Source: Candidatus Woesearchaeota archaeon
Lineage (GTDB): Archaea; Nanobdellota; Nanobdellia; Pacearchaeales; GW2011-AR1
Direction: 5' to 3'
DNA: 38,405 nucleotides
NCBI GenBank assembly: GCA_964513665.1
Contig: CAZEOE010000002.1
Coordinates: 1 to 38,405, forward strand
This document shows, piece after piece, positions 14,238 through 38,405 of this stretch. The position numbers were made by a program, and so were the translations under genes. The notes beneath the pieces are model-generated. The model did not search any database and was not told the origin of the DNA. It was given only the letters and a program-made list of their open reading frames with translations. Numbering within the stretch: the first letter of the stretch is position 1; each line of letters begins with the position of its first letter.

Positions 14238-14595
14238 CTGGGTTTATTCCTATCTCAAGCGTTTTACCGCCGCTGGTCACGTCAACGTTATCACCCCATT
14301 CGTTACGGCGGCGGCGTTTCAGCCATTCCAGCGCGGCTTTCCAGTCACCCTTTGCGGCGGCGGATTGGATGACACGTACCATGTTTACTTCACATTGCGC
14401 GTTTGCCGTCTCCAGAGCCTCGGAAAACTCCCTGTAAATACCGCTCTTTGCTTCTCTGCCCTTCTTCATCCACTCGTTGAAGGTGTCATAATGGATACCA
14501 CCAGAACGGGCTGCGGATTGGTACGATGCGCCGTGAAGTACGGCATTGGATACCAATTCGATGATTTCAGGGGTAATTTTGCTAGGGCGTGCCAT
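14200..14595 (-). CDS. terS: terminase small subunit (HTH)
   Basis: MARPSKITPEIIELVSNAVLHGASYQSAARSGGIHYDTFNEWMKKG is an HTH N-terminus typical of small terminases. It overlaps the terL start. ATG 14595 is preferred to the TTG at 14631. Confidence 0.6.
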   Translation of the reverse strand: MARPSKITPEIIELVSNAVLHGASYQSAARSGGIHYDTFNEWMKKGREAKSGIYREFSEALETANAQCEVNMVRVIQSAAAKGDWKAALEWLKRRRRNEWGDNVDVTSGGKTLEIGINPVDYRSGLTKTEE

Positions 14596-15808
14596 TTTCC
14601 ACCAGTTCGGGCTGTATTCCTGTGGCGTCAAACCATCTTTGCAGGATGACAGCCCCGTAATTGGGACTTATCTCCATTGCGTAACAGCGGCGGTTTAGGT
14701 TGTGGGCGGCAATGATGGTTGTGCCACTGCCACAAAACCAATCCGCCACAATGTCACCCGATAACGAAAAAGTCTCTACTGCCATTGTCAACAGTCCAAC
14801 GGGCTTCTGTGTAGCGTGTTCATAGTCAGCCGCCGCGTCTTTATTCACGCCCCACACAGACCCGATGCGCTTTCCTTTTATAGTTTCGCCACGTCCATAA
14901 GCCAGAATTATCTCATAGTCCGTCAACAGACTATGAGATAAGTCGCCCATTCCACCTCCGCCCTTGTCCCATATAATCATATTGTCTAGAGTTCCCAATC
15001 CAGAGCAAATTTCAATCCACTCTCTAACCACTTTCCAAGACGTACACACTAAAGCCCATCCATCAGAAAATAATTTCATGTTAGGTATAAAATCTATAAA
15101 CTTATCGTCATTCTCTAGTACTTCAAACTTCTTACTTTTCGTTCTCATATTACTTTGGTATTCGTAACCATAAGGCGGGTCACTAAAGTTTAGTTGCGCC
15201 CTCTCCCCGCCCATCAAACGTTCCACGTTCTCCCGCACGGTACAGTCACCGATTAGCAAGCGATGCTCCCCAAGCCTCCAAAGTTGACCTGTGCTAGTCT
15301 GCCATTTCTCCGCCAACTCTGCGGCGCGGTCTATCTGTGGTTCGGCGTCCACTTTCTCGGCGTTCTCACTATTCAGTAACTCTTTCAGGTTGGTAACATC
15401 ATTTGACCAACCGGACAATGTTTCTTTGTCCATCCCCCACTCTCGCAAATCCGCCGCGCTCCACGATGACAGCGCATCCCATGACCATGAACCTGTGGCG
15501 GTGTGCAGGAGTACGGATACCTTTTTGCGCTCATCGTCTGTAAGCATACGGTTAGATTGCAGAGCAGTAACTTCATACGACGGGTCTTTTATCGTCATCC
15601 ACGCCGATACTCTCTGATGACCGTCATATAAGTGGACGCGACTATCGTCTGTGAATGGGGATACTGCCAGCGTTTGGATTTGTCCTAATTCCCGCTCGGA
15701 CTTGATAAGTCTTTGCGCTTGTGCCTTTGTGGACATGCGCGGGTTGTCTTGCCATGCAATAATCTGTCCCAATCTTATCTTGACAGGCGTCCACACTAAA
15801 TCACTCAT
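14582..15808 (-). CDS. ParB-like nuclease domain / DNA (N6-Ade or N4-Cyt) methyltransferase fusion
   Basis: LYDGHQR ParB-type motif, NFSDPPYGY catalytic motif and FCGSGTT AdoMet motif. ATG 15808 has GGGAG upstream and is preferred to the tool start at 15922. Confidence 0.85.
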   Translation of the reverse strand: MSDLVWTPVKIRLGQIIAWQDNPRMSTKAQAQRLIKSERELGQIQTLAVSPFTDDSRVHLYDGHQRVSAWMTIKDPSYEVTALQSNRMLTDDERKKVSVLLHTATGSWSWDALSSWSAADLREWGMDKETLSGWSNDVTNLKELLNSENAEKVDAEPQIDRAAELAEKWQTSTGQLWRLGEHRLLIGDCTVRENVERLMGGERAQLNFSDPPYGYEYQSNMRTKSKKFEVLENDDKFIDFIPNMKLFSDGWALVCTSWKVVREWIEICSGLGTLDNMIIWDKGGGGMGDLSHSLLTDYEIILAYGRGETIKGKRIGSVWGVNKDAAADYEHATQKPVGLLTMAVETFSLSGDIVADWFCGSGTTIIAAHNLNRRCYAMEISPNYGAVILQRWFDATGIQPELVENGTP

Positions 15809-16019
15809 ACCCGCGCTCCCAAAATTCGGGGTCTTCAAAATCGTGCGCCGTTTTGATGGGACTGCCCTCATCCCGTTCGGCGTACACTTTGGCGGCAAAT
15901 CCGTCACTGAGACAGACGCCAAATAGACCGTCCGCGTCTGCCTGCCAAAAGCGGCAGAAGTTGCATTGTTTAGGTGTGGGGATTATTCCCGCGTAGGTTT
16001 CCGGTATCATTGGGGGCAT
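15801..16019 (-). CDS. hypothetical small protein
   Basis: 72-aa ORF that overlaps the methyltransferase start by 8 nt. Confidence 0.4.
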   Translation of the reverse strand: MPPMIPETYAGIIPTPKQCNFCRFWQADADGLFGVCLSDGFAAKVYAERDEGSPIKTAHDFEDPEFWERGYE

Positions 16020-17793: not shown

Positions 17794-17820
17794 TTTTGTT
17801 CTCCTTGTAACTTCTTATAC

Positions 17821-17953
17821 CACAAATTACGGTTTGCGTTAGCGGCGTGTGCCGCAATGAGCACAAAGGCTCCACACAGAACCCTGATAAAACTCATGCT
17901 TGCCGTCAGACGATCCTGGGCACACGTCCGACTGCACGCATTTGTTAGCCTTC
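17821..17953 (-). repeat. attC-like imperfect palindrome of the minus-strand solo cassette
   Basis: Minus strand reads GAAGGCTAAC-aaa-TGCGT-gc-AGtCGG-ac-GTGTGCC...GGCACAC-g-CCGCT-a-ACGC-aaacc-GTAATTTG. R'' is the reverse complement of GTTAGCCTTC at 18452-18443. Confidence 0.75.
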
Positions 17954-18438
17954 GCCACGACTTCACGAGACACAGGCGGGTTGAGAACCTTTATCCATCG
18001 CTGTTTAGTGTTTTCTGGTTGGTCATCTCTGCGACCAGTCCTACTATGCCAACCGTGACCACCGCCAGCAGATTTGTTTTCACAAACCCAACCGCTTGCC
18101 AGCAAAGAAATTCCCGTTTCTGTATCCAGAATATAAGTTTGTATCTTTTCGTAACCTAGTTCTTTTGCTACTCTGGCAGATGCCGCATATAAAATGCTAC
18201 AAGCGTTTTTAGTACCATCACTGACAAGTCGTACAACTTCAACCGTAGTGCGCCAATTTACCAAACGAGCTACAGGACGCCCTACAATAGCCGCGCCCAC
18301 CAACTCGTGTTTCTTGGTATCGTAAACACCAATGGAAAAACGATGTCCTTGCGCTTCTTTGTGGTGACGATGCCACCGCTTTACAAGGGTGTTTGCTTCA
18401 GATAATTCTACGGGAACAATGATTAGGCTCATGGGCAA
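17839..18438 (-). CDS. GNAT-fold (XF1762-like) protein with Cys-rich tail; cassette-borne
   Basis: The pattern VELSEANTLVKRWHRHHKEAQGHRFSIGVYD recalls the phage-associated GNAT-like family. The C-terminal C...CAHC is encoded inside the variable part of the attC-like site. Confidence 0.55.
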   Translation of the reverse strand: MPMSLIIVPVELSEANTLVKRWHRHHKEAQGHRFSIGVYDTKKHELVGAAIVGRPVARLVNWRTTVEVVRLVSDGTKNACSILYAASARVAKELGYEKIQTYILDTETGISLLASGWVCENKSAGGGHGWHSRTGRRDDQPENTKQRWIKVLNPPVSREVVAKANKCVQSDVCPGSSDGKHEFYQGSVWSLCAHCGTRR

Positions 18439-18442
18439 GTAA

Positions 18443-18521
18443 GAAGGCTAACGGTTTGCGTATCAAACACTACGCCGACCGGCGCTTTGCAAGCATAAAA
18501 CATTACGCTTTGCAGCGGCGG
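18443..18521 (-). repeat. decayed attC-like site forming the upstream junction of the solo cassette
   Basis: Minus strand reads CCGCCGCTGC-aaa-GCGT...gat-ACGC-aaacc-GTTAGCCTTC. The 3' arm and R' are intact. The 5' arm has TGC instead of AAC and the inner pairing is lost. Confidence 0.5.
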
Positions 18522-18647
18522 GGCGATGTAAACGTCTCAGCATCAAAAAACCAATGACCGGAACGCCAACCACGAGTAATCCAAAGCAGGGCAATCACAC
18601 ACGCATTGTAAACGAGTTGCAAACCGCGAGCATTGACGAACAAAAGA

Positions 18648-18680
18648 TTATCTTTCATGCTTATCTTTCATGCTTATCTT
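18648..18680. repeat. 13-bp tandem duplication TTATCTTTCATGC x2.5
   Basis: Identical units at 18648-18660 and 18661-18673, plus a partial third unit that contains the stop codon of 18674-18988. Confidence 0.8.
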
Positions 18681-18988
18681 CCTTTCTCGCACAAATATCT
18701 TGCGCTGACATACCCCTGCTCAATCTCCGCCCACGACTGACCGAAACTGTCAGGCATATAACCGAAAACTTCCACCACGTCCCCGTCCTGCAATCCGCCG
18801 ATGATAGGGTATTCAATCCCCGCACCTTCGCGGACGTTCAACCCGTACGAACCGCAGACGGTCATCACGAGCGAAGGCACGGGCGCGGCAAGCGCGGCGG
18901 GCATGGTGTTAATATGGGGCGGCATATCAACAGTACAGGCGGAAAGTGTGAATACAAGGATAATGATAATTATCAGTTTATTTTTCAT
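18674..18988 (-). CDS. SH3b-domain lipoprotein
   Basis: Lipobox LVFTLSAC followed by an SH3b-like pattern: YGLNVREGAGIEYPIIGGLQDGDVVEV...WAEIEQGYVSARYL. Confidence 0.7.
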   Translation of the reverse strand: MKNKLIIIIILVFTLSACTVDMPPHINTMPAALAAPVPSLVMTVCGSYGLNVREGAGIEYPIIGGLQDGDVVEVFGYMPDSFGQSWAEIEQGYVSARYLCEKGR

Positions 18989-19211
18989 GTGATTTCCTGT
19001 GATGGTACTGGCATAGCGTCTGCATCTTGCTTACCGTGTCGGGGATTAGAAGGTTCCACCAACGATACCCCTTGTAATTCACATGATGCAAATGTAATCC
19101 AGTCTGCGCCCCGCACTGTTGGCACTTATCCCGCTTTCGTAACCAGCGGGTCAACTTCCACGCGGGGGATTTTAGATAGATATTCCTGTAATACCAGCGG
19201 CGGAAATTCAT
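18978..19211 (-). CDS. HNH endonuclease-like protein
   Basis: CQQCG...HLHHVNY...LCQYHHRKSH (CxxC, HNH core, CxxH). Confidence 0.6.
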   Translation of the reverse strand: MNFRRWYYRNIYLKSPAWKLTRWLRKRDKCQQCGAQTGLHLHHVNYKGYRWWNLLIPDTVSKMQTLCQYHHRKSHEK

Positions 19212-19627
19212 TCTTTTACCTCTGCCACTACATCCAATTCCAGACCGTCTTCCGTCTGGACTGCCACTACATTCGCGCCGATGACAATCAATCCGATTTT
19301 TATGGCGTAGTATTCCGCGCCGGATGCAAGGTTATACTTTTGTCGCCTGACTGCCACTATGCCGCCCGCTGTTTGAAAGTCCGCCAATGCCCCTGCCACT
19401 ATGCCAGCTTTCGACCTCAATTCCTGCAATTTTGCACTCGTCAAGGTCTTTTGTGAAGCGTTCGACGTAGTGGCAGTTGTGGTTTCGGACAAATTCACGG
19501 ACGCGACGGGCGGCGTACTCTCCGAGTGCGGTGACTTTTTCGAGACGCCCGATGTATTCAACTCGGACGCGCTTTCCTTTTTCATACGTTGACCATTTGC
19601 CATAGTGTATTCCTGACTGACAGGCAA
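19208..19627 (-). CDS. hypothetical protein (only the C-terminal ~80 aa look protein-like)
   Basis: 139-aa ORF. The N-terminal half is Ser/Thr-rich low complexity and overlaps 19332-19718 in another frame. The C-terminal part carries four in-frame (V/I)VA repeats encoded by the GCCACTA motif. Confidence 0.4.
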   Translation of the reverse strand: MPVSQEYTMANGQRMKKESASELNTSGVSKKSPHSESTPPVASVNLSETTTATTSNASQKTLTSAKLQELRSKAGIVAGALADFQTAGGIVAVRRQKYNLASGAEYYAIKIGLIVIGANVVAVQTEDGLELDVVAEVKE

Positions 19628-24445: not shown

Positions 24446-25828
24446 TTATAACTGCCTCATCGTACCGCTTTCAAAGCGGGTGATTGACTTCTTGAATATT
24501 GCCAGTACGTCACCGACTTTTCCGCTTCGGTTTTTCGATACAATAAGTTCACACGCCCGATCTACCGATGTCCTGTCATCCTCATCTTTATCATAGATAA
24601 AAATAACAACATCAGAATCCTGCTCTAAAGAACCAGACTCGCGCAAGTCGGCAAGGATGGGGCGTTTGTTGGTTCGCTGCTCTACGGCACGACTCAACTG
24701 CGCGGCGGCGATAATCGGGATGTCCTGCTCTTTTGCAAGTGCCTTTAATCCGCGCGATACCTGTCCCACCTCTAGGTGACGTTCCTTTTTCTTGTCGTCA
24801 CCGTCTGCAAGTTGAATGTAATCCAGCATAACAGCGCGGTACTTTTTCTTTGCCATTTCACGGCGTACCAGTTGGCGAATGTTCCCGATCTTCACTGTCG
24901 GTAAGTCAATGATGGTAAGTAAATCGCGCATGGCGGCGAGTTCATCCACCGCATTAGTGTATAAACCCCATTCGTGTTCCTGTAATTTCCCTGATTGAAT
25001 ACGCCCAACATCTACGCCCGACATTTGCGCTAAAAGTCTGTGCGCGATTTCGCGGGATGTCATTTCGAGTGAGAATAAAAGTACCGCCTGTCCATTTCGC
25101 ATCATGTTTAGTGCCATTGTCAAAAGCAGGGCGGTTTTACCCTGTCCGGGTCTACCGGCGACAATCGCCAATTGTCCGCCTGTAAGTCCTGTATTGAGCA
25201 TTGCATCCAATAAAGGCAACCCAGTCTGTGTTCGGCGTATCATGCCCCTGCTTGCCGCGTCTGTCTCATCGTAGGCGAGACTTACCGCTTGGGATATATC
25301 CATGATGTAATCCTGCGCCCCGCTGGAATACAGGGAAATTCCATTGAACTCAGCGTTTACATCGTTCATGATGTCGGCGGCACGGCGTCCGTTTGCAGAC
25401 CACACAACCATTTTTTTTCCCAACTCTTCCAACTGCTTTTTGACATGATAATCCTGGATATTTTCTGCATAACTTTCTACGTTGCGCGGGTCGCCTTCAT
25501 TACGCAAATCAGAGAGTAACGCCCTGCCCAATCTCGCGCCGTTCGATACTGCGTCCAGTTTGTACGCGCGCTCCAACTCATCCCCTACGGTAATGGTATC
25601 AATGGACAATCCGCGCTCGTATAGTTTTTCGATTGAATTCCAGATTTCGCCATAAGAGACGTTCCCGAACATTTCGGGTTTTAGTATCTCCCTGACGCGC
25701 TGGTATACTGCCAGTCCGCCACGAAGCACGCCGCCAATAACGGCTTCCTCATTGTCACGGACTATGACGCGCTTGCCGTTGAAGTCCAGTTCTGCTACCT
25801 GCCTGTCTAGTTGGTTATTTAAGTCCAT
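24446..25828 (-). CDS. dnaB: replicative DNA helicase (DnaB family)
   Basis: 460 aa. Walker A GRPGQGKT, MLDYIQL Walker B region, IIAAAQLSR and DSDVVIFIY motifs, and an N-terminal DnaB-like domain. Confidence 0.9.
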   Translation of the reverse strand: MDLNNQLDRQVAELDFNGKRVIVRDNEEAVIGGVLRGGLAVYQRVREILKPEMFGNVSYGEIWNSIEKLYERGLSIDTITVGDELERAYKLDAVSNGARLGRALLSDLRNEGDPRNVESYAENIQDYHVKKQLEELGKKMVVWSANGRRAADIMNDVNAEFNGISLYSSGAQDYIMDISQAVSLAYDETDAASRGMIRRTQTGLPLLDAMLNTGLTGGQLAIVAGRPGQGKTALLLTMALNMMRNGQAVLLFSLEMTSREIAHRLLAQMSGVDVGRIQSGKLQEHEWGLYTNAVDELAAMRDLLTIIDLPTVKIGNIRQLVRREMAKKKYRAVMLDYIQLADGDDKKKERHLEVGQVSRGLKALAKEQDIPIIAAAQLSRAVEQRTNKRPILADLRESGSLEQDSDVVIFIYDKDEDDRTSVDRACELIVSKNRSGKVGDVLAIFKKSITRFESGTMRQL

Positions 25829-28201: not shown

Positions 28202-28804
28202 CTATATACCCATGTATTTATACAATATCTTTTTAGCCGCAGCCCAAGCCGCATCCCTAGCCGCAGCCCGAGCCGCAACCCAAGCCGCAGCCCAAGCTGC
28301 ATCCCCAGCCGCAGCCCCAGCCGCAGCCCAAGCCGCATCCCTAGCCGCAGCCCAAGCCGCATCCCTAGCCGCAGCCAACTCTTCTTTTGTCGCTTTCCCA
28401 TGTGCGAATCGTCGTGCGGTATCTATCGCGTTTTGAGGTCGTTTGTCGTCTGGATAATGTTTGTTCCAGATTGGCATAACAGTTTCGGCAATATCACACG
28501 CGGCGAGGCGTGCATTTTTATCATTCCATTTATTGATTTTCTTGACGAATCGCATCTGTTGAGAAACGTCTTTTTCGTCACCCTCAAAAATATCACCCCT
28601 TAGTTCCACCTCGAACATTTGAGCGTTCATCCATTCAATAACGTGTTCCTTTTTGCAGGCGTGATACCCTGATACACAGAGTTCAATGGCGTCAACTTTC
28701 GGCAACCATTTTCCAGGCTTGCCATTTTTGGGTAGATATTCTGTAAAATCAAATCCAGAATACTCACCCTTGTTGTCCTCATCCAAAAACTTATAGCGTT
28801 TCAT
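28202..28804 (-). CDS. Ala/Trp tetrapeptide-repeat protein
   Basis: 200 aa. Globular N-terminal ~140 aa followed by AAARDAAWAAARDAAWAAAGAAAGDAAWAAAWVAARAAARDAAWAAA, which is encoded by the 12-nt tandem repeat. Confidence 0.65.
   Translation of the reverse strand: MKRYKFLDEDNKGEYSGFDFTEYLPKNGKPGKWLPKVDAIELCVSGYHACKKEHVIEWMNAQMFEVELRGDIFEGDEKDVSQQMRFVKKINKWNDKNARLAACDIAETVMPIWNKHYPDDKRPQNAIDTARRFAHGKATKEELAAARDAAWAAARDAAWAAAGAAAGDAAWAAAWVAARAAARDAAWAAAKKILYKYMGI
28236..28376. repeat. 12-nt tandem repeat, about 11.75 units (GCCGCAGCCCAA / GCCGCATCCCTA types)
   Basis: Read directly from the sequence: contiguous 12-nt units with 1-3 substitutions each, in frame within CDS 28202-28804. Confidence 0.85.
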
Positions 28805-29151: not shown

Positions 29152-29171
29152 GGTTGCCTGTTCAAAAACAG

Positions 29172-29244
29172 AGCCGAGAGCGGGAATTGAACCCGCAACC
29201 TCCTGAGTACGAAACAGGTGCACTGCCAATTGTGCTACCTCGGC
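29172..29244 (-). tRNA. tRNA-Thr (anticodon CGU), no encoded CCA
   Basis: Minus strand reads GCCGAGG-TA-GCAC-AATTGGCA-GTGC-A-CCTGT-TTCGTAC-TCAGG-AGGTT-GCGGG-TTCAATT-CCCGC-TCTCGGC-T. All four arms fold, with one G-U in the acceptor stem and a U31-U39 mismatch. Confidence 0.85.
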
Positions 29245-31063: not shown

Positions 31064-31654
31064 ATGAACAAGTCAGAAAACATCACCGAACTCGCACAGG
31101 CACTTGCCAAAACGCAGGCAGAAATGCCACACGTCCCAATGAATGCCGTCAATCCGTTTTTGAAAAACAAATTCGCGGACCTGGGCGCAGTCATCACCAC
31201 CATCAAACCGATCATTGCAAGGCACGGTCTGTCCTACTCGCAACTCCCCGTCTCCGACGGCAACCGAGTCGGCATCACTACCGTCGTCATGCACGCATCC
31301 GGTCAATGGATTGAGTCAACCGTCATGCTGGAACTGGCAGACGAGAAGGGCAAATCCGCCGCGCAAGTTGCAGGAAGCGTCATTACCTACCTGCGCCGCT
31401 ACTCGCTGTCGTCTGCGTTTGGTCTGTATGCCGACGAAGACACGGACGGAAATCCCGCCGCGAAACAGGCAGTAAAAGCGTCGGCAAAACAGACCGTGCG
31501 CGACCGCTATTCGGAACTGCTGAAAGAGGCGGTAGAACTCGGCGCGGTGAAAGAGTCCGATTGGGGACTCAACGACAAAATGACCGACGCGGAAATCACC
31601 GAACTCGGAAAGCAACTCCGCGCCATAGTTGAAAAAGCAAAGGTAGGTAAATAA
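31064..31654 (+). CDS. erf: ERF-family single-strand annealing protein
   Basis: NPFLKNKFADLGAV ... ITYLRRYSLSSAFGLYADEDTDG matches the ERF superfamily pattern. Confidence 0.85.
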   Translation: MNKSENITELAQALAKTQAEMPHVPMNAVNPFLKNKFADLGAVITTIKPIIARHGLSYSQLPVSDGNRVGITTVVMHASGQWIESTVMLELADEKGKSAAQVAGSVITYLRRYSLSSAFGLYADEDTDGNPAAKQAVKASAKQTVRDRYSELLKEAVELGAVKESDWGLNDKMTDAEITELGKQLRAIVEKAKVGK

Positions 31655-32049
31655 TGGGATGGTACTCGCACGATGAAACGCTGGTTGTCGGCAAGGTTGG
31701 CAAGGACGCGGAAATGAAATATCTGAATAACGGCAACGCCGTGACCAACTTCTCAATCGCTGTTGATCGCTCCTACAAGGACAGAGACGGCGAACTCCAC
31801 AAGCGGACTATCTGGTATCGCATCACCTGTTACGGCAAACTCGCTGAGGTTGTGAAGGATGTCAAGAAGGGCGATACCATTTTGGCAGGCGGTAATCTCG
31901 AAGCAGACTGGCAGACTGGTTCTCCGCGTATCTGGACCAAGCAGGACGGCTCCGCCGGTTCATCCTTTGAACTCAACGCGCAGACGATCAAGTTCCTTAG
32001 CAAGCGCGAGCAGACGGAAACCCCTGTCGAAGACGACGCGCCGTTCTAA
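31654..32049 (+). CDS. ssb: single-stranded DNA-binding protein
   Basis: OB-fold pattern (VVGKVGKDAEMKYLNNGNAVTNFSIAV...TIWYRITCYGKLAE) and an acidic C-terminal tip, EDDAPF. Confidence 0.9.
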   Translation: MGWYSHDETLVVGKVGKDAEMKYLNNGNAVTNFSIAVDRSYKDRDGELHKRTIWYRITCYGKLAEVVKDVKKGDTILAGGNLEADWQTGSPRIWTKQDGSAGSSFELNAQTIKFLSKREQTETPVEDDAPF

Positions 32050-32057
32050 CCACCAGC

Positions 32058-32082
32058 GCGGGGCGTGTGTGATGCGCCCCGC
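32058..32082 (+). terminator. GC hairpin after ssb (weak terminator candidate, no U-tract)
   Basis: GCGGGGCG (32058-65) pairs with CGCCCCGC (32075-82) across a 9-nt loop. Followed by CAACCAAAAA. Confidence 0.3.
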
Positions 32083-32141
32083 CAACCAAAAATGGCGTGC
32101 TGGTCGGTATGCCCTTGCAGGATAAACAATAGTTGGGCGGC
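32081..32141 (+). repeat. array-proximal junction site (short, degenerate attC/attI-like)
   Basis: GCCAAC-caaaaatg-GCGTGCTGG...GCAGGATAAACAATA-GTTGGGCGGC. The 3' half parallels GCAGGTAACGCAAACC-GTT. Its GTTGGGCGGC (32132-41) is the partner of R'' of cassette A. Confidence 0.45.
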
Positions 32142-32168
32142 TCTCGCTCAACAGCGTAAGGAGCAAAA

Positions 32169-32354
32169 ATGAAAGATTACGAATTGCCACAATGCGAAAA
32201 TTGTAAATGGTCATTAGGAATAGAGCAGGTTAGAAAGTCTCTGGTAATTGGCAATAAATTGTTTTGTGACAAGTGCCGCCCAACAAAGCGTGCACCCGAC
32301 GTGAAGCCACGTCGCGCCGTGAAAGCAAAAACCCGCAAGGCTTCACGCGGGTAA
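32169..32354 (+). CDS. cassette A: 61-aa zinc-ribbon mini-protein
   Basis: AAGGAG SD. CENC...CDKC. The stop TAA lies in the 3' arm GGGTAACGC of its attC-like site. Confidence 0.6.
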   Translation: MKDYELPQCENCKWSLGIEQVRKSLVIGNKLFCDKCRPTKRAPDVKPRRAVKAKTRKASRG

Positions 32355-32372
32355 CGCAAACCGTTCGGCGGC
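32275..32372 (+). repeat. attC-like site 1
   Basis: GCCGCCCAAC-aaa-GCGT-gc-ACCCG-ac-GTGAAGCC...GGCTTCAC-g-CGGGT-a-ACGC-aaacc-GTTCGGCGGC. Confidence 0.8.
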
Positions 32373-32392
32373 TCGTCCGCAAAGGAGAAATC

Positions 32393-32626
32393 ATGTTGAT
32401 AAAGGCTAAGGCGCGTTTAGGTTTTCGCAATATCGTTGTTGATGATTGCCCGTATTGCCATCGCACGCACTACCACAATCCGCCCATTGCGGAAGGTGTC
32501 CGCATGGCTGATTGCTTCAAGGGTGAATACCTGCTCGATTTTGAAGCCGCCGAACATTGTTTGCACACCGACCCGCCTTCGGCTCTTGAAGTCGCGGCGG
32601 AATCTCAAGAAACGGCGGGCGGGTGA
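32393..32626 (+). CDS. cassette B: 77-aa Cys/His mini-protein
   Basis: AAAGGAGA then 4 nt then ATG 32393. CPYCHRTHYH. The stop TGA lies in the 3' arm CGGGTGAAAC. Confidence 0.55.
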   Translation: MLIKAKARLGFRNIVVDDCPYCHRTHYHNPPIAEGVRMADCFKGEYLLDFEAAEHCLHTDPPSALEVAAESQETAGG

Positions 32627-32643
32627 AACTCGCCGTTAGGTGC
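32546..32643 (+). repeat. attC-like site 2
   Basis: GCCGCCGAAC-att-GTTT-gc-ACaCCG-ac-CCGCC...GGCGG-g-CGGGT-g-AAAC-tcgcc-GTTAGGTGC. GTTT/AAAC covaries with GCGT/ACGC. Confidence 0.75.
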
Positions 32644-32647
32644 TAAT

Positions 32648-32848
32648 ATGCTACAAATTTTGTCTTGTGGTTGTGAAGTGAAACTAAAGCGCGATAAGAT
32701 GCGCTGCTCAAAATGTGGTGAGCTATTTTGCCCGAAACATATCTATCAACGTGTTGATGAAAGTAATAGGGCTATCACTGTAAATGCTCCGTTGCTGTGT
32801 GCGGTATGCGCCAATCCAGAGAACGCACCTAACACAGCGTCCACCTGA
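32648..32848 (+). CDS. cassette C: 66-aa multi-CxxC mini-protein
   Basis: CGC, CSKC, CPKH and CAVC motifs. The stop lies inside the ACCTGAC arm. Confidence 0.5.
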   Translation: MLQILSCGCEVKLKRDKMRCSKCGELFCPKHIYQRVDESNRAITVNAPLLCAVCANPENAPNTAST

Positions 32849-32958
32849 CGTGCGCTCCGCTCGCCGCGTTCCGTGTACCTGTGGTATGGATGATGGCTTG
32901 CATGAATGGGATTGCGCCATAAGCCGCGCACGCAGGTAACGCAAACCGTTATGCCGCC
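32825..32958 (+). repeat. attC-like site 3
   Basis: GCACCTAAC-aca-GCGT-cc-ACCTG-ac-GTGCGC...GCGCAC-g-CAGGT-a-ACGC-aaacc-GTTATGCCGCC. Confidence 0.8.
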
Positions 32959-32988
32959 CACGGGCTGACAGTGGGAGAAAGGTCTACG

Positions 32989-33246
32989 ATGAACGTTTGG
33001 GATATTGAGTTACAGAAACACTATGCAGATATGGAAGAGGATAATTGGGACGCCGATCTCACCAGCTATTACCGTGTGGTTGCGCCTGATTATGAGAGCG
33101 CCTTAGCCACGGCAGAGTCGCTCGCTTTGTCCGAAACCTTCGAGGATGACGAATCCGACAAAGTTGTGCCAGTTGATCGGGTGCGCCTGGTTTCGATCAA
33201 GAAGGGCATTTCCGTTGACGCTATCGCAACCGTAAAGGCGGCATAA
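32989..33246 (+). CDS. cassette D: 85-aa acidic protein
   Basis: GGGAGA SD, ATG 32989. No Cys residues. The stop TAA lies within R'' GGCGGCATAAC. Confidence 0.55.
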   Translation: MNVWDIELQKHYADMEEDNWDADLTSYYRVVAPDYESALATAESLALSETFEDDESDKVVPVDRVRLVSIKKGISVDAIATVKAA

Positions 33247-33335
33247 CCCTGGCTTGCACGTTGACGGCGGCGGGCGTGGCAAAAACCGGACAGTCACAAA
33301 CGTCGCCGCAAGTGAAGCCAAACCCGTTGGGCGGC
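33237..33335 (+). repeat. attC-like site 4
   Basis: GGCGGCATAAC-cct-GGCTT-gc-ACgTTG-ac-GGCGGCG...CGTCGCC-g-CAAGT-g-AAGCC-aaaccc-GTTGGGCGGC. Confidence 0.75.
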
Positions 33336-33355
33336 TTTGCCCAAAAGGAAATAAC

Positions 33356-33679
33356 ATGAGCAACGGAAGATATTGTGATAATTGTGAAACTCACTTGAAT
33401 GATGAAGATTACGTGTCCTATGGTTCATGGTCTTACACTTGCCATGATTGCGGTTTTTCATATCGTCATGGTTCTGCTGGCGCAGGTGAGCAGGTTAAAA
33501 GATTCAACAGCCGCCCAACAAAGCGTGCAGCGGACAAAAGCGGGATTTTGCAAGAGTCGCCAAAGCCAGATAATATTATTTTGACGGTGAGACTTCGGAG
33601 CCAGTGTCCAGCCCGCTTTTGTCCGCTAAAGCCAGCCGTTCGGCGGCTTCGTGGCTGTCGAAAAAGTGAGAAGAAATGA
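33356..33679 (+). CDS. cassette E: 107-aa zinc-ribbon protein
   Basis: AAAAGGAA SD, ATG 33356. CDNC...CHDC. Reads through its own attC-like site and ends in an ATGA overlap with the next ORF. Confidence 0.5.
   Translation: MSNGRYCDNCETHLNDEDYVSYGSWSYTCHDCGFSYRHGSAGAGEQVKRFNSRPTKRAADKSGILQESPKPDNIILTVRLRSQCPARFCPLKPAVRRLRGCRKSEKK
33510..33647 (+). repeat. attC-like site 5
   Basis: GCCGCCCAAC-aaa-GCGT-gc-AGCGGACAAAAGCGGG...CCCGCTTTTGTCCGCT-a-AAGC-cagcc-GTTCGGCGGC, with a 16-bp perfect inner helix. Confidence 0.8.
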
Positions 33680-34038
33680 ACCTTTTACAATCAAGTAATT
33701 CGGTAAACGTAAAGGAAGATAATCCAGGTTTATTTGAGTTGTCGTTTTCTCAGCAAGCCTTTGCGGTTGGCGATATTGTTACTCGTTCTGGCAATGATGA
33801 GCAAGTGATAACTAGCATAGATTTTGATTGGGGAACGCTCGATGTATTGTGCATAAAGCCTGCGTACTGGATAGGCTTTGGCGAAAGCGAAGGCAATCTA
33901 ATAAGGCGGTATGAGTTTGTCAGAAGTGCCGCCGAACACAGCGTGTACCTGACCGCCTTCGGCGCGGGTATGCAGTTGCGCCTTGCTAAGTTTGTAAATT
34001 TTATTCGAGAGTTACTTGCCAAATACGGCGGCAGGTAA
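33676..34038 (+). CDS. cassette F: 120-aa hypothetical protein
   Basis: ATGA-coupled start. The stop TAA lies in the 3' arm CAGGTAACGC. Confidence 0.55.
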   Translation: MNLLQSSNSVNVKEDNPGLFELSFSQQAFAVGDIVTRSGNDEQVITSIDFDWGTLDVLCIKPAYWIGFGESEGNLIRRYEFVRSAAEHSVYLTAFGAGMQLRLAKFVNFIRELLAKYGGR

Positions 34039-34056
34039 CGCAAACCGTTAGCCCGC
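33928..34056 (+). repeat. attC-like site 6
   Basis: GCCGCCGAAC-aca-GCGT-gt-ACCTG-ac-CGCC...GGCG-g-CAGGT-a-ACGC-aaacc-GTTAGCCCGC. Confidence 0.8.
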
Positions 34057-34086
34057 ACTTGGCGCAATGTGCAGAAAGGCAAAATA

Positions 34087-34359
34087 ATGTCATTCAAATC
34101 AGATTTTGGTCGCGATCCAATTCCAGGCGAAGATTATTCATTAGATGATGCAATGTCTCAGGATGAATACGAATACCTTACAGGAACGGGCGCGTATTTG
34201 CCACGCAATCACGGTAAAAGTCAGCATTACGAGATTGTAAAAAAAGTCTTTGCTAAATTATTTAGCGGGCTAACAAAGCGTGCACCTGACGTGTGCAACG
34301 CGTCGGATTGCAAAGAGGCTGCCGTCAATGCGGGTTTATGTGAGAAGCATTCGTTCTAA
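34087..34359 (+). CDS. cassette G: 90-aa protein with C-terminal Cys/His knuckle
   Basis: AGAAAGG SD, ATG 34087. CNASDC...CEKH is encoded inside the variable part of site 7. Confidence 0.55.
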   Translation: MSFKSDFGRDPIPGEDYSLDDAMSQDEYEYLTGTGAYLPRNHGKSQHYEIVKKVFAKLFSGLTKRAPDVCNASDCKEAAVNAGLCEKHSF

Positions 34360-34395
34360 TCCTGCACACGCAGGTAACGCAAGCCGTTAGAAGGC
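34265..34395 (+). repeat. attC-like site 7
   Basis: GCGGGCTAAC-aaa-GCGT-gc-ACCTG-ac-GTGTGC...GCACAC-g-CAGGT-a-ACGC-aagcc-GTTAGAAGGC. Confidence 0.8.
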
Positions 34396-34399
34396 TAAT

Positions 34400-34603
34400 A
34401 TGCAAACGTCAATAATACTAACATGCTCGTCTTGCCACGAAAAACTAAATTTCTACATGAAGGTAATTGATAGCAATGTAGTTTTGCGCGTGTATAAGTG
34501 CGAAAATTGTAAGAAAACTGGTATTTGTTCTGTTTGCGGCGAAGGTGTTGTGTACAAAAAAGGTGTGTGCCAAAGTTGTTACGAATATGAGGCGCAGAAA
34601 TGA
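34400..34603 (+). CDS. cassette H/I, ORF 1: 67-aa double zinc-ribbon protein
   Basis: CSSC...CENC...CSVC...CQSC. Confidence 0.55.
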   Translation: MQTSIILTCSSCHEKLNFYMKVIDSNVVLRVYKCENCKKTGICSVCGEGVVYKKGVCQSCYEYEAQK

Positions 34604-34863
34604 AACATTATTTTATGACCTTGCCCAATGTTTTCTTTCCTGAAAACAGGTTTTGTGCCAAGTGTGGCGAATACTTCACACACCCGAATCACCTACATGG
34701 TAGAGATTGCCAATGCGAAACTTGCCAGCAAGAACGCCTTCTAACACAGCGTGCAGTTGACGTGGGGCAGGCTGGGCAATTTTTTGGACGGTCGGTTATG
34801 CCCCACGCAACTAACGCGAGCCGTTCGGCGGCAAAGGAGATAACATGGCTCGATTTTCAATAA
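34600..34863 (+). CDS. cassette H/I, ORF 2: 87-aa Cys/His protein
   Basis: ATGA overlap with ORF 1. CAKCG...H..H...CQCETC. Reads through site 8 and overlaps the next start. Confidence 0.5.
   Translation: MKHYFMTLPNVFFPENRFCAKCGEYFTHPNHLHGRDCQCETCQQERLLTQRAVDVGQAGQFFGRSVMPHATNASRSAAKEITWLDFQ
34736..34832 (+). repeat. attC-like site 8
   Basis: GCCTTCTAAC-aca-GCGT-gc-AGTTG-ac-GTGGGGC...GCCCCAC-g-CAACT-a-ACGC-gagcc-GTTCGGCGGC. Confidence 0.8.
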
Positions 34864-35159
34864 GTGGATACGATAACGATAGCAAGTGTAAAATATGCGG
34901 TTCTCACGCCAGCGAAATACACCGCGAAGGTTGTGAGCTTGGCGCGGTGTATGCCGAAAGAAAAGAGATGCGCTTAGTGATTGAGCAGTTTCTAAAATTG
35001 CTCGGTGTCGAAACTATCACCTCGGCGTTTTCAAAGATTGCCGCCGAACAAAACGCGCACCTGACGGGGCTACACTGTCCCGCCTGCATGTGCCGTAATG
35101 AAGAAATTGTAACTTGCGCCCGCTGTGGTACTTTGAAAGCCGCCCCGCAGGTAGCGTAA
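34845..35159 (+). CDS. cassette J: 104-aa zinc-ribbon protein
   Basis: AAAGGAGA SD. CKICG near the N-terminus. CPAC...CARC is encoded in the variable part of site 9. The stop TAA lies in the 3' arm GTAGCGTAAGCC. Confidence 0.55.
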   Translation: MARFSISGYDNDSKCKICGSHASEIHREGCELGAVYAERKEMRLVIEQFLKLLGVETITSAFSKIAAEQNAHLTGLHCPACMCRNEEIVTCARCGTLKAAPQVA

Positions 35160-35172
35160 GCCGTTCGGCGGC
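35040..35172 (+). repeat. attC-like site 9
   Basis: GCCGCCGAAC-aaa-ACGC-gc-ACCTG-ac-GGGGC...GCCCC-g-CAGGT-a-GCGT-aagcc-GTTCGGCGGC. ACGC/GCGT is the swapped version of GCGT/ACGC. Confidence 0.8.
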
Positions 35173-35183
35173 AAAGGAGAAAA

Positions 35184-35558
35184 ATGAACATTCGGCAATT
35201 TAGCGAAAAAATAATCAATGGTCCTGGCGGCTTGCACGCTTACGAGTATCACGAAATGGCTGAGCCAGTTGGTGATCGTGATGTGGCGGTGGCTGTCTGG
35301 GTAATCAAGTGTCTGTCTAATCCGAAGTGTGAAGGCTCGGAAGTGGCTATCCAAGCAATCTTGGAAAGGCGTAATAAACTTGCCGCCGAACAATACATGC
35401 ACCCGACTGGCGGTACGTGCCCCGTGTGCGAGAATGATCGCCTAAATGGGTATCCGTGTCCTAATCTAGACGTTGCTCCTCAGTGGCGTTGCAAGTGTGG
35501 CTGGGCAAATTTTGAAAATGTAAGACTGTGTTCTGCGTGTGGTACGCAACGCAGGTAA
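35184..35558 (+). CDS. cassette K: 124-aa protein with CPVC and a RanBP2-like zinc finger
   Basis: AAAGGAGA SD. WRCKCGWANFENVRLCSAC fits W-x-C-x-C-x3-N-x6-C-x2-C. The stop TAA lies in CAGGTAACGC. Confidence 0.55.
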   Translation: MNIRQFSEKIINGPGGLHAYEYHEMAEPVGDRDVAVAVWVIKCLSNPKCEGSEVAIQAILERRNKLAAEQYMHPTGGTCPVCENDRLNGYPCPNLDVAPQWRCKCGWANFENVRLCSACGTQRR

Positions 35559-35576
35559 CGCAAACCGTTACGACCC
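35382..35576 (+). repeat. attC-like site 10 (terminal, long, partly degenerate 5' arm)
   Basis: GCCGCCGAAC-aat-ACAT-gc-ACCCG-ac...g-CAGGT-a-ACGC-aaacc-GTTACGACCC. R'' and the 3' arm are intact, but the inner 5' arm no longer pairs perfectly. Confidence 0.6.
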
Positions 35577-36604: not shown

Positions 36605-37639
36605 TCACTTGTTGCACAACCACAAATCAAAATCAACGCCGGAATAAATCAACTCGCACCCGTCAAGCGTTGGCGTCACACTCGGCGGGATGCTGGTCTG
36701 CGTCCGCGTTGCAGTAGGTGTCCGCGTCACAGTCGGCACAATGCCAGTAGATGTCGGCGTCCTGCTCGGTGGTGGCGGCGCAGGTGTCACCGTTGGCACT
36801 CCATCCGGTGGGGGGGTACCTGCCACGTTGCCAGAGACTAAAACAGATGACGGTAACGAAATCCACGGTTGCGTGGTGTTGCTGAAATAATTGTTCACCA
36901 CCCGCACATTACTACCAGCGGGGATTGTCATCCCGTTTTCACCATAGAATCGGATGCCCCTGTAACAGTTATAGATATAGTTGCCTTCCACCAACACGTC
37001 GTGAAACTGATTACCCCATCCGCTGTAATTCTCCGTGCCTAAAAGGATACACTGCGCGGGGTTTCCGTTTCGGTAGAAACTGGTCTTTCCCGTATTCGTC
37101 ACGCGGTTGTTGCGTGCGGTCGTGTTGGGCGAATTATCCAGGTACAAATTTACGCTGTAATTGTCATGTACTAAGTTTCCTTCAATCAACACATTCCTAC
37201 CACGAGTCGCCGCGATCCCCTCCCCGTGATTTTCATACACCCAATTCCCGCGAATGGTGATGTTCTCACCGCCGAGTTGGACTTTCACACCGCTCCCCCA
37301 GCCCCCCGAGCGGTCCACATTCTCCCGCACGGTATCGAAGACGACACTATCTTGAAAAACAATATCCTTGCCGGTGATCAATACCCCGTGCGAATTGCAC
37401 CCGCTTACCACAAAGTCTCGCGCCACAATATGCCTGCCTGTCAATCTCAAGCACTGCACCCGCGCACCATTGCCCCACACCACCACCGGATCCGCCTCCG
37501 TGCCGCTCATGGAATAGGTCAGCGTCCCGTAGGTTCTCGACCCATCCAGCACAATATCGTTCGCGTTCGGCTGCGCCAGCAAAATGCCAGCCGCGATCAC
37601 CGCCGCGCCGATAATCCCTGCAATAGTTTTTCTGTTCAT
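36605..37639 (-). CDS. right-handed beta-helix (pectate-lyase-fold) protein with N-terminal anchor and Pro/Thr linker; candidate depolymerase or tail spike
   Basis: Start MNRKTIAGIIGAAVIAAGILLA (ATGA overlap at 37639). Repeated GN..-.N... rungs (IRGNWVYENHGEGI, IEGNLVHDNYSVNL, ARNNRVTN, VEGNYIYNCYRGI). PT-rich tract near the C-terminus. Confidence 0.65.
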   Translation of the reverse strand: MNRKTIAGIIGAAVIAAGILLAQPNANDIVLDGSRTYGTLTYSMSGTEADPVVVWGNGARVQCLRLTGRHIVARDFVVSGCNSHGVLITGKDIVFQDSVVFDTVRENVDRSGGWGSGVKVQLGGENITIRGNWVYENHGEGIAATRGRNVLIEGNLVHDNYSVNLYLDNSPNTTARNNRVTNTGKTSFYRNGNPAQCILLGTENYSGWGNQFHDVLVEGNYIYNCYRGIRFYGENGMTIPAGSNVRVVNNYFSNTTQPWISLPSSVLVSGNVAGTPPPDGVPTVTPAPPPPSRTPTSTGIVPTVTRTPTATRTQTSIPPSVTPTLDGCELIYSGVDFDLWLCNK

Positions 37640-38405
37640 GCCTCTACTCCATAAATGTATTCCCACACGATGACCAGACCCGGCGCACCGTTCCCGCCTG
37701 CGCGGTTGTTGGCGTCATTGCTGGAGCGCGCTCCTGTCCCGCCGCCGCCCCAATTTTTGCCCGTAGTCCCCGCCTCGTCTGCTCCGATAACCCCGGTCGA
37801 GCGGGTATTCCCAGCCCAAAATGACGCCCCGCCAACCGATGGAGACACTTGCGTAACAGCCCAGCACGCGCCGGGGATGGACTCGGCGCCGGGGATATGG
37901 AGATCACCGCCCGTCCCGCCCGTACCGCCAGCCCCACCACCCACCGCGCCGGAACGTGGCACGGTTGCGCTTGCCGCTTCGCCATTGCCCCCTTTCCCCC
38001 CTACAACGTTGAAATGACTGCCAAATGAGCAGTTACCACCATCACCACCATTATTGTTCCCAGCCGTCGCACCTGTACCCACCGCGCCGATGGTCACAGT
38101 CTCGCTCGACCCCAACGCGGATGCAAGTATCTTTTTCTTGGCATACTCCCCACCGCCGCCGGCATTGGCACATGCCGCCTGACTGGATGCGCCTGTCACA
38201 CCTCCGCCGCCGCCGCCAGGGGCAATAGCCTCAACAATAATATAAGCAAGGTTGCTCGGTTTGTCCCAACCGCCTGAGGATGTGTACACTCTCGGACTTG
38301 CCGCCGATAGTTTTACGGGCGAGTCCGCGCTTAACAAATAGGTTTCAATCGCGGTGATTTCATCCGCCCGCTCGTTTTGATGCAACGCCAAAACGTCATC
38401 AACAA
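37636..38405 (-). CDS. glycine-rich tail fibre protein, C-terminal part (5' end runs off the window and joins 1-184 if circular)
   Basis: The frame is open to 38405; the tool start at 38391 is a TTG. Poly-Gly blocks (GGGGGGVTG, GGDGGN, GGGAGGTGGTGG) are typical of phage fibre Gly-rich domains. Confidence 0.6.
   Translation of the reverse strand, partial: VDDVLALHQNERADEITAIETYLLSADSPVKLSAASPRVYTSSGGWDKPSNLAYIIVEAIAPGGGGGGVTGASSQAACANAGGGGEYAKKKILASALGSSETVTIGAVGTGATAGNNNGGDGGNCSFGSHFNVVGGKGGNGEAASATVPRSGAVGGGAGGTGGTGGDLHIPGAESIPGACWAVTQVSPSVGGASFWAGNTRSTGVIGADEAGTTGKNWGGGGTGARSSNDANNRAGGNGAPGLVIVWEYIYGVEA

Follow-up and report, generated by a model that had tools for sequence, protein, structure and literature searches.

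What are the ten imperfect palindromes that lie among small genes downstream of ssb in contig CAZEOE010000002.1 (assembly GCA_964513665.1, filed as Candidatus Woesearchaeota archaeon), and how did they come to be there? The stretch analysed, called the window throughout, comprises 38,405 nt and, judged by its gene content, is a tailed-phage genome or most of one. We propose that the region behind ssb is very probably an integron-type array of gene cassettes without an integrase of its own, situated in the early region of this uncultured phage. IntegronFinder defines a cluster of attC sites lacking integrase (CALIN) as at least two attC sites with no integrase gene (intI) nearby (Cury et al. 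2016, PMC4889954). The window holds nine plus-strand attC sites supported by a covariance model within 3.0 kb and no intI across its 38.4 kb, which places the array among the CALINs. The adjacent pair of intI and attI that marks a complete integron is absent from it.

The array begins 83 nt past the ssb stop codon and consists of ten units, all on the plus strand, with G-to-G lengths of 231, 272, 313, 378, 312, 409, 339, 437, 340 and 404 bp. In all ten, the nucleotides at the start of the unit (GTT plus 6-9 nt) are the exact reverse complement, over 9-12 nt, of the nucleotides that end in AAC at the 5' edge of the palindrome of that same unit. The sites share the layout [R'']AAC-aaa-GCGT-gc-ACCTG-ac-...-g-CAGGT-a-ACGC-aaacc-GTT[R'], and a repeat finder recovered a conserved 5' module, RYYYAAC-AAA-GCGTGCACCTGAC, and a conserved 3' module, GCAGGTAACGCAAACC|GTT. 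Each site lies 3' of an open reading frame (ORF); it reads ...YAAC ... GTT[A/G/C]G.. on the plus strand, matching the inverse core RYYYAAC and the core GTTRRRY of attC sites. A unit can be written as TTRRRY, Shine-Dalgarno sequence, ORF and attC...G, every unit having a Shine-Dalgarno sequence of its own. The earlier note on this DNA had described ten same-strand units of 231-437 bp with these complementarities, this palindrome layout and one Shine-Dalgarno sequence each, and on recomputation the whole description held, with all ten pairs at the coordinates it had given. The first G|TT, at 32132, belongs to an entry site that overlaps a hairpin after ssb. The features of the array are as follows (R1 is the covariance model described below).

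32074-32141, plus strand: entry site, a decayed short attC-like remnant (CCGCCAAC...GCGTGCTGG...CAGGATAAACAATA|GTTGGGCGGC), read from the sequence
32133-32363, plus strand: cassette 1, 231 bp; complementarity 10 nt; R1 72.7 bits, E 1.7e-18; bottom-strand fold z -4.0; ORF 32169-32354 (61 aa, CxxC motifs) crosses attC1 (32275-32372) and stops at the TAA of GGGTAACGC
32364-32635, plus strand: cassette 2, 272 bp; complementarity 11 nt; R1 33.4 bits, E 1e-7; ORF 32393-32626 (77 aa); attC2 32546-32644, divergent
32636-32948, plus strand: cassette 3, 313 bp; complementarity 9 nt; R1 57.7 bits, E 2.2e-14; ORFs 32648-32848 (66 aa, zinc-finger-like, with FYVE/AN1 zinc-finger matches under the Pfam cut-off) and 32784-32939; attC3 32824-32957
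32949-33326, plus strand: cassette 4, 378 bp; complementarity 11 nt; R1 17.2 bits, E 3e-3; acidic ORF 32989-33246 (85 aa), ending within R''; attC4 33237-33335, divergent
33327-33638, plus strand: cassette 5, 312 bp; complementarity 11 nt; R1 46.8 bits, E 2.2e-11; fold z -4.4; ORF 33356-33679 (107 aa, zinc-ribbon-like N-terminus) crosses attC5 (33510-33647), which has a perfect 16-bp inner stem
33639-34047, plus strand: cassette 6, 409 bp; R1 61 bits, E 2.7e-15; ORF 33676-34038 (120 aa) crosses attC6 (33928-34056) and stops at the TAA of CAGGTAACGC
34048-34386, plus strand: cassette 7, 339 bp; complementarity 10 nt; R1 72.8 bits, E 1.6e-18; ORF 34087-34359 (90 aa); attC7 34265-34395
34387-34823, plus strand: cassette 8, 437 bp; R1 69.1 bits, E 1.6e-17; overlapping ORFs 34400-34603 (67 aa, four CxxC motifs) and 34600-34863; attC8 34736-34832
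34824-35163, plus strand: cassette 9, 340 bp; complementarity 12 nt; R1 63.7 bits, E 5e-16; ORF 34845-35159 (104 aa), its CPxC...CxxC tail encoded by the loop of attC9 (35040-35172)
35164-35576, plus strand: cassette 10, 404 bp up to the G at 35567; complementarity 12 nt; 3' motif AACGCAAACCGTT at 35557; ORF 35184-35558 (124 aa); terminal attC10 35382-35576, 195 nt, with canonical ends and a degenerate stem

Folding of either DNA strand gave a common architecture for most sites. From the outside inward, an unpaired spacer of 3 nt (aaa) against 5 nt (aaacc) separates the outer R-box helix from a GCGT/ACGC helix of 4 bp; a 2x1 internal loop then leads to a helix of 5 bp, beyond which a single base bulges out before the inner helix, capped by a variable terminal loop of 35-150 nt. 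The extra bases ('gc' against 'a' and 'ac' against 'g') always lie on the 5' arm of the top strand; in the minimum-free-energy folds of the bottom strand, the 3' arm carries the single bulged T and the 2x1 loop. In known attC sites the central spacer is unpaired, extrahelical bases occur on one arm only and the terminal structure varies, and the 3' arm of the folded bottom strand is where their extrahelical bases are expected (Nivina et al. 2016, PMC5027507). The bulged bases are thus predicted to be extrahelical attC bases, and the model would have them contact the integron integrase IntI. The bottom-strand fold, which the earlier note had suggested as a check, bore out the R and L boxes and the one-sided extra bases, but single sites reach only modest z-scores (-0.3 to -4.4), since their long loops lack structure. 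The conserved arms are translated in differing frames, as ...TKRAPDV... in units 1 and 7 and as ...AAEHSVYLT... in unit 6, and are therefore conserved at the DNA level, not at the protein level.

Base pairing is also conserved among bacterial relatives of these sites. In an alignment of 40 non-redundant bacterial sites of the same family, taken from integrase-linked arrays, 13 of 22 pairs show compensatory double changes (e.g. ACCTG/CAGGT, ACCCG/CGGGT, AGCGG/CCGCT and ACTTG/CAAGT). Pairing holds in 90.9% of the cells of this alignment, against 27-35% in register-slid controls, and none of 500 shuffles attained the observed values. The covariance model R1 was built from these bacterial sites alone, with no phage sequence, as a surrogate for the curated attc_4/HattCI model of IntegronFinder. 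In the window, R1 matched nine of the ten array sites and a solitary minus-strand site, with E between 1.6e-18 and 3e-3, always over the full length and in coding-strand orientation. As negative controls, 603 kb of unrelated metagenome loci gave one match, and 21 viral loci related to the window through their ERF protein (L168-L188) gave none. A match in L201 (38-197, minus strand; 57.7 bits, E 3.5e-13) was the sole hit among 80 metagenome loci fetched via SSB homology, and by its sequence this site on an 18.6-kb contig is a probable further member of the attC family.

Where else does this family occur? The 18-mer at the 3' end of the palindrome (CAGGTAACGCAARCC|GTT) was found in at least 120 stretches of GTDB species-representative genomes, against our estimate of ∼35 chance matches for a collection of that size. 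By manual count, ∼84 of 120 among the matches listed named Chloroflexota lineages (∼70%), mostly Anaerolineales/Anaerolineae, and every dense array among the matches listed was from Chloroflexota; L057, for example, has ten sites in 8 kb at a spacing of 700-1000 bp. The bacterial sites form a homogeneous unit of ∼136 nt with the same ends as the window sites. On the viral side, the 18-mer CAGGTAACGCAARCCGTT is present in 44 IMG/VR contigs, most of which hold 2-11 further degenerate copies on one strand. The sequence logo of 205 family copies, GGTAACGCAARCC|GTT[A/G/C]G[G/A]C, resembles GTTRRRY.

The same family stands beside integron integrases, both in bacteria and in phages. The fetched loci were probed with an IntI1 sequence, which served as a probe only, and each match was confirmed with NCBIfam, where the integron integrase profile TIGR02249 has a curated cut-off of 265 bits:

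L135, bacterial: integron integrase, TIGR02249 467 bits
L069, bacterial: integron integrase, TIGR02249 443 bits
L112, bacterial: integron integrase, TIGR02249 268 bits although the locus end truncates the gene, which is divergent from an array of eight sites
L018, viral: integron integrase, TIGR02249 395 bits
L025/L034, viral: integron integrase, TIGR02249 396 bits

At these loci the attC sites are adjacent to the integrase gene, in divergent or co-oriented layouts. An intI gene divergent from the cassette array is the textbook integron layout. A search of candidate hosts for intI together with this attC family, another suggestion of the earlier note, thus found both, in Chloroflexota (443-467 bits). 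The attC family is that of the chromosomal integrons of Anaerolineae (Chloroflexota), and these bacteria are therefore the likely host of the phage, as far as sequence can tell. In L156, L071, L145 and L161, the upstream end of the array was considered as a place for an integrase, and an IS110 transposase and housekeeping genes were found there instead. The transposase (L156 2056-3201, minus strand; NF033542, E 2e-67) is placed precisely where a bacterial attC array has its upstream end. IS1111/IS110 elements are known to target attC sites, and its placement recalls these.

Among the viral contigs, L165 (the L025 contig with more flank, 45.7 kb) and L167 (40 kb) carry intI (396 bits) followed by three to four co-oriented attC sites. 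Their large terminase genes (PHROG 38, E 1e-74 and 1e-87) lie 4-7 kb downstream, and a head protease gene is present too. The intI-attC elements extend over 10001-12662 in L165, 10001-12891 in L167, 5418-9146 in L018 and 5832-10520 in L035, on contigs of 37-46 kb. Phages with complete integrons of inverted orientation and of the same attC family therefore exist. The integrases of L035 and L010 score 203-214 bits, under the cut-off, and are perhaps divergent or in decay. The flanks of L018, L025 and L035 contain FtsK-like, partition and replication-initiator genes. One attC is found both in a phage contig and in a contig of a Chloroflexi metagenome-assembled genome: the sites L018 6668-6804 (plus strand) and L148 4573-4709 (minus strand) encode an identical 38-aa peptide, RRTQRAPDVCPVCNGKGSIRVGVYSENCEACNGTGKRR followed by a stop, with two DnaJ-type CxxCxGxG motifs within the attC loop.

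If cassettes move as circles, the start of each should have been cut from its own attC. Across 136 cassettes of bacterial arrays, the 7 nt after GTT match the cassette's own R'' at 6.35/7 positions (85 of 136 perfectly) and the adjacent R'' at 3.79/7 (4 perfectly). The corresponding values for 102 cassettes of viral arrays are 5.15/7 for the own R'' and 3.36/7 for the physically adjacent one. This pattern is predicted exactly by excision and insertion of circular cassettes with the crossover at G|TT.

Cassettes are also shared between contexts. Cassette 6 (33638-34054) is 88% identical over 417 nt to a cassette of viral contig L019, where it sits just downstream of a dnaB gene. The homology starts at G|TTCGGCGGC and stops at R', and the flanks are unrelated save for a 7-nt remnant. 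Diverged relatives with the gene order erf-ssb-array (L031, L005 and L003; in L031, ERF is 51% and SSB 46% identical, and R1 has 14 matches) carry an entirely different cassette content downstream of ssb. None of the 21 ERF relatives L168-L188 has an attC array. Among ERF phages, arrays were thus seen only where contigs belong to this attC family, as a common host clade would lead one to expect. The earlier reading of the units as integron-type cassettes recombined at G|TT is strengthened throughout: their family is that of IntI-linked arrays, a phage-free model finds the sites, the stems co-vary, and a cassette occurs in another context with its homology breaking at the cassette boundary.

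A further cassette, 14 kb from the array and between phage genes, lies at a locus (17800-18550) to which the earlier note had also pointed, and proved to be one real minus-strand cassette with the same signature:

17830-18451, minus strand: solo cassette, 622 bp, with the signature GTTAGCCTTC / GAAGGCTAAC (start / R'')
18443-18498, minus strand: short degenerate attC remnant upstream of the solo cassette (…AAAGCGCCGGTCGGCG…GATACGCAAACC|GTTAGCC); R1 12.8 bits, E 0.047, weak

The ORF of the solo cassette (17839-18438) encodes a Mom-like DNA-modification protein (PHROG 1384, E 2.4e-31; Pfam Mom E 2.2e-5, under the cut-off) and crosses its own attC (17821-17953, minus strand; R1 32.3 bits, E 2.1e-7). 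The product would be an anti-restriction DNA-modification enzyme. A homologue of Mom is also a cassette in the integron of L035, and methyltransferases occupy cassettes in L018 and L165. Its sequence suggests that the solo cassette was inserted at a secondary site or is what decay has left of a two-site array. Insertion of cassettes at non-att genomic sites (attG) takes place at 5'-GWT-3' (bioRxiv 10.1101/2022.09.11.507474). As expected of secondary-site entry, the solo cassette and the array entry lack a proper attI and show site remnants only. In contrast to attG, the 3' junction of the Mom cassette, ACGCAAACCG|TAATTT, is a non-canonical G|TA, neither GWT nor G|TT, and a degenerate attC remnant lies upstream. 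An origin by attC x attC recombination followed by decay is equally possible. The ORF 18554-19456 (plus strand), divergently placed by the solo cassette as in an integron platform, was considered as an integrase and rejected: it matches no Pfam family, has a junk-like composition and is antisense to minus-strand genes.

The ten ORFs of the array matched no family in Pfam or PHROGs. Several have pairs of CxxC motifs and sub-threshold zinc-finger matches, and the array cassettes may thus encode small, mostly zinc-ribbon-like orphan proteins. Measured against the homologous cassettes in L019 and L036, the ratio of nonsynonymous to synonymous substitution rates (dN/dS) is 0.14 for cassette 6 before its attC, 0.14 for 8a and 0.29 for 8b; the shared cassette ORFs are under purifying selection. 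Viral cassettes are short, with a median of 413 bp against 812 bp in bacteria. At 59 of the 146 viral sites in the L001-L044 set, an upstream ORF of at least 30 codons continues across the attC and ends with the TAA that lies in the conserved L' box GGTAACGC, in the frame in which the conserved arms read ...TKRAPD...RR and a stop; read-through to this TAA is rare at bacterial sites. In the attC-encoded tail of cassette 6, dN/dS is 2.7 on 9 differences, so that read-through tails look tolerated, not selected, and unconstrained as protein. They seem to have arisen through compaction and to be tolerated, without being selected as domains. That zinc ribbons are a general product of attC loops was considered and dropped, since only 7 of 146 viral sites qualify and the tail of cassette 6 is unconstrained.

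How would such an array work without an integrase of its own? Judged from the sites, the cassettes probably entered by IntI-type recombination and are probably still movable by IntI, so that recombination may be ongoing in this phage. IntI would act in trans, supplied by a chromosomal integron of the host or by a co-infecting phage that encodes it. It would bind the folded bottom strands and cleave at G|TT. Cassettes would be excised as circles and re-inserted at another attC or at a secondary GTT-like site. The phage would thereby exchange small accessory genes of the early class, which would be read from the early transcript of erf-ssb, each provided with its own Shine-Dalgarno sequence.

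Several observations weigh against this reading. Sites 2, 4 and 10 are more degenerate than the rest; site 4 scores poorly, and neither attC10 nor the entry site (32074-32141) was reported by R1 at E<=1. The IntI profile, run on six frames of the window with filters off, gave a best E of 0.55, and phmmer found no integrase either. An attI-like sequence conserved after ssb was sought in L031, L005 and L003 and none was found; the arrays there start at differing distances. The ends of the window do not overlap, and terminal repeats sought in it were absent. The ten array ORFs matched no cassette of the sampled bacterial arrays. The ERF search of IMG/VR returned at most 51% identity and no near-identical phage. 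Moreover, some breakpoints are imperfect. In L019, a 7-nt remnant of the L' arm (TCCGCTA) precedes the junction, which is thus not perfectly clean. Cassette 8 is 92% identical to a cassette of L036 from the upstream junction to a point just past L'', beyond which the two attC loops are unlike. A site of L026 that stands behind an unrelated ORF shares 91% identity with the Mom-cassette attC over a stretch that includes the loop. Units bounded at G|TT, which the earlier note had suggested looking for in related contigs, are accordingly found at the start of cassette 6 but not at the end of cassette 8. The breakpoints shared with L036 and L026 fall inside attC and suggest that some homologous or illegitimate exchange within the conserved arms occurs as well, which is plausible given the adjacent Erf and SSB.

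Could exchange of this kind explain the array on its own? The attC-like repeats may be real and yet be shuffled mainly by homologous recombination or single-strand annealing, for example by Erf/SSB, between arms of 20-30 nt, without IntI as the driving force. They would then be portable recombination linkers, as has been proposed for promoter-early stem-loops (PeSLs), the mobile regulatory cassettes that are shuffled by homologous recombination in hyperplastic regions of T4-type phages. The genes erf and ssb directly upstream, the shared R''-L'' of cassette 8 and L036, the Mom attC with its counterpart in L026 and the missing intI all speak for this view. The array shares with the PeSL system its small early ORFs set between repeated stem-loops, in a region of the phage that varies, and the repeats could aid modular shuffling. 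In contrast to PeSLs, no promoter motif is tied to the repeats: 12 promoter-like sites were counted against 6.8 +/- 3.0 expected, not placed at the repeats, a weak test, as the sigma-70 consensus may not apply to Chloroflexota. The sites of the window are instead attC sites with a G|TT footprint, of an integrase-linked family. Exchange between arms would, moreover, uncouple the first 7-9 nt of a unit from its own R'', whereas all ten units keep perfect complementarity and the coupling holds across the viral arrays. With the homology of cassette 6 beginning at G|TT, and intI linked to the same attC family in bacteria and phages, we consider this explanation unlikely as the principal process; as a secondary process it can coexist with IntI-type recombination. 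A passive, dead fragment of a host chromosomal integron, captured once by illegitimate recombination and without a continuing role in the phage, strikes us as more improbable still. Pieces of chromosomal integrons captured by Vibrio phages have been described (Qi et al. 2023, PMC9892861), the window has neither intI nor attI, and its entry and terminal sites are degenerate. Yet the phage cassettes are half the bacterial size (median 413 against 812 bp), two of their ORFs match cassettes in other viral contigs and none of the ten matches the sampled bacterial cassettes. Furthermore, the arrays that follow ssb in the diverged relatives L031, L005 and L003 are different ones, the cassette ORFs are under purifying selection with a Shine-Dalgarno sequence each, and a second, separate cassette carries Mom, a typical phage counter-defence gene.

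Two further explanations seem to us very improbable, and to the same degree. The palindromes might be ordinary regulatory hairpins of early genes (terminators, RNA-processing sites or translational couplers) whose likeness to attC is coincidental. They do sit between small same-strand ORFs, some of them fold well as single strands (z down to -4.4), and attC sites are thought to be weak terminators (PMC9892861). However, there are no T-runs after the hairpins, and terminator-like sites number 9 against 8.0 +/- 3.3 expected, none of them on the plus strand at the palindromes. ORFs cross most of the hairpins, no Rfam family matched, bacterial chromosomes contain integrase-linked arrays built of this very sequence family, and the boundary footprint has no regulatory explanation; the proposal is close to refuted. 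Alternatively, the window could be a chimera of assembly or binning, in which phage DNA was joined to a bacterial integron array. Repeats of the attC type do break and mis-join short-read assemblies. A look-up of cassette 6 returned only a 1.7-kb fragment identical to the window, an independent Logan short-read contig (L189, SRR15237813, 1734 bp) both ends of which break inside attC repeats. This suggests that such arrays are often fragmented and under-counted in metagenome assemblies. The same contig nevertheless reproduces 1,734 bp of the array exactly (32344-34077). Phage genes stand on both sides of the array, erf and ssb upstream and a block of beta-helix tail-spike genes downstream; the second cassette lies between phage genes 14 kb away, the cassettes belong to the phage size class, and the arrangement recurs in over 40 independent viral contigs.

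How, then, does an integron-type array of this kind compare with known systems? The earlier note had taken cassette arrays in tailed phages to be undescribed, which is not the case. Among 10,705 phage genomes, Qi et al. (2023, Front Microbiol, PMC9892861) counted 17 CALINs, besides 3 complete integrons and 1 In0 (21 in total), and five of six tested attC sites of virulent phages recombined with attI1 under IntI1. Like the window, the published CALINs of Tetrasphaera phage TJE1 and Pseudoalteromonas phage PH101 (PMC9892861) have same-strand, attC-bounded cassettes in a tailed phage with no intI. Their cargo includes DNA modification, with methyltransferases there and Mom here (methyltransferases in L018 and L165), and the presumed source of recombination in both is a host IntI acting in trans. 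The differences lie in scale and in the sites. Published phage CALINs are defined by at least two attC sites, whereas the window has ten contiguous cassettes and a solo one; its sites, unlike theirs, are highly homogeneous and tied to one host clade; and its family is found on over 40 uncultured viral contigs, the largest array numbering 14 sites (L031).

The sedentary chromosomal integrons, of the type of the Vibrio cholerae superintegron with its V. cholerae repeats (VCR), offer a second comparison, represented here by L112, L057, L139 and others of Anaerolineae. Their R and L boxes and spacer are identical to those of the window (…YAAC-AAA-GCGTGCACCTGAC…GCAGGTAACGCAAACC|GTTRGGC). They share the circular-cassette footprint and the single co-oriented ORF per cassette, and homogeneous attC sites are typical of them. 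In contrast, the window array is located in a phage, has no intI or attI and consists of cassettes of half the length. The loops of the window and viral sites are diverse and often coding (read-through at 59/146), whereas the bacterial unit is a conserved 136 nt. Integrons with an inverted integrase, in which intI and cassettes lie on the same strand, are recognised by IntegronFinder 2 (PMC13323075). The likeness to these concerns the relatives only: L165, L166, L167, L018 and L035 have intI followed by co-oriented attC sites, and the window has no intI.

Integrons and CALINs in phage genomes are thus a published category, not a new one, and the known integron mechanism is unchanged. Our literature search found no description of this family of Chloroflexota phages. 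What is new is the scale (ten cassettes and one more in the window, up to 14 sites in relatives), which makes this an unusually large and clean example, together with the tie to the attC family of one host clade and the related phage contigs with an IntI of their own. Also new are the small cassette format of the viral arrays, the ORFs that run through attC and an uncultured phage lineage with arrays downstream of ssb.

Recent work has shown that chromosomal integrons of bacteria keep cassettes for defence against phages. Phage arrays of the same attC family, with small early genes and an anti-restriction gene of the Mom type, would belong to the opposing side of this conflict, and cassettes would also be able to travel between cells by way of them. 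We tentatively go one step further, in a proposal whose chances we put somewhat below even: an uncultured lineage of Anaerolineae phages may have made the integron system its own means of shuffling early and counter-defence genes. It would draw on a phage-adapted pool of ∼0.4-kb cassettes, largely distinct from that of the host, with Shine-Dalgarno sequences of their own and ORFs that often run through attC to the stop in the L' box. Some members would carry their own IntI in inverted orientation by the packaging genes, and others, such as the window, would have arrays downstream of erf-ssb that are serviced in trans. If this were true, integrons would be a two-sided platform of the arms race, on which bacterial defence and phage anti-defence cassettes share one recombination currency.

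The finding is of interest to specialists in several ways. The attC family alone predicts a host (Anaerolineae) for an uncultured phage lineage. Surveys confined to sequenced isolates (21/10,705 phages) miss lineages in which large arrays are common. Finally, natural attC sites with coding loops and arms should be useful for gauging the sequence freedom of attC.

The phage context of the array is given by the following genes, assigned from profile and homology annotation of the window; a minor tail protein is also among its structural genes.

7964-9760, minus strand: head protease/major capsid fusion
11546-13033, minus strand: portal
13041-14237, minus strand: large terminase
24446-25828, minus strand: DnaB helicase
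31064-31654, plus strand: erf, an early recombination gene directly upstream of the array (Pfam ERF E 6.3e-31)
31654-32049, plus strand: ssb, an early recombination gene directly upstream of the array (Pfam SSB E 5.8e-22)
36605-37666, minus strand: beta-helix tail spike, in the tail-spike block downstream of the array

The INPHARED phage collection gave no nucleotide match to the window by megablast or blastn, with no match to a GenBank phage, and the terminase is at most ∼31% identical to those of sequenced phages. An SSB search of JGI metagenomes returned at most 53% identity, with mostly bacterial matches, and exact-protein look-ups of SSB and ERF returned nothing. Rfam contains no attC family. 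In the Rfam scan of the window, the attC sites matched no family and the sole match was a tRNA, a tRNA-Thr (anticodon CGT) at 29171-29244 on the minus strand, between the minus-strand gene block and the plus-strand early block. Adjoining the terminase is a gene (14582-15922, minus strand) for a 446-aa protein with a ParB/nuclease-like N-terminal region and a DNA methyltransferase (PHROG 498, E 6e-60), a second DNA-modification function besides Mom. An ORF at 28202-28804 (minus strand) encodes DUF7666 and an Imm5-like immunity-protein domain (Pfam E 9e-9), an unusual cargo for a phage that may relate to toxin immunity.

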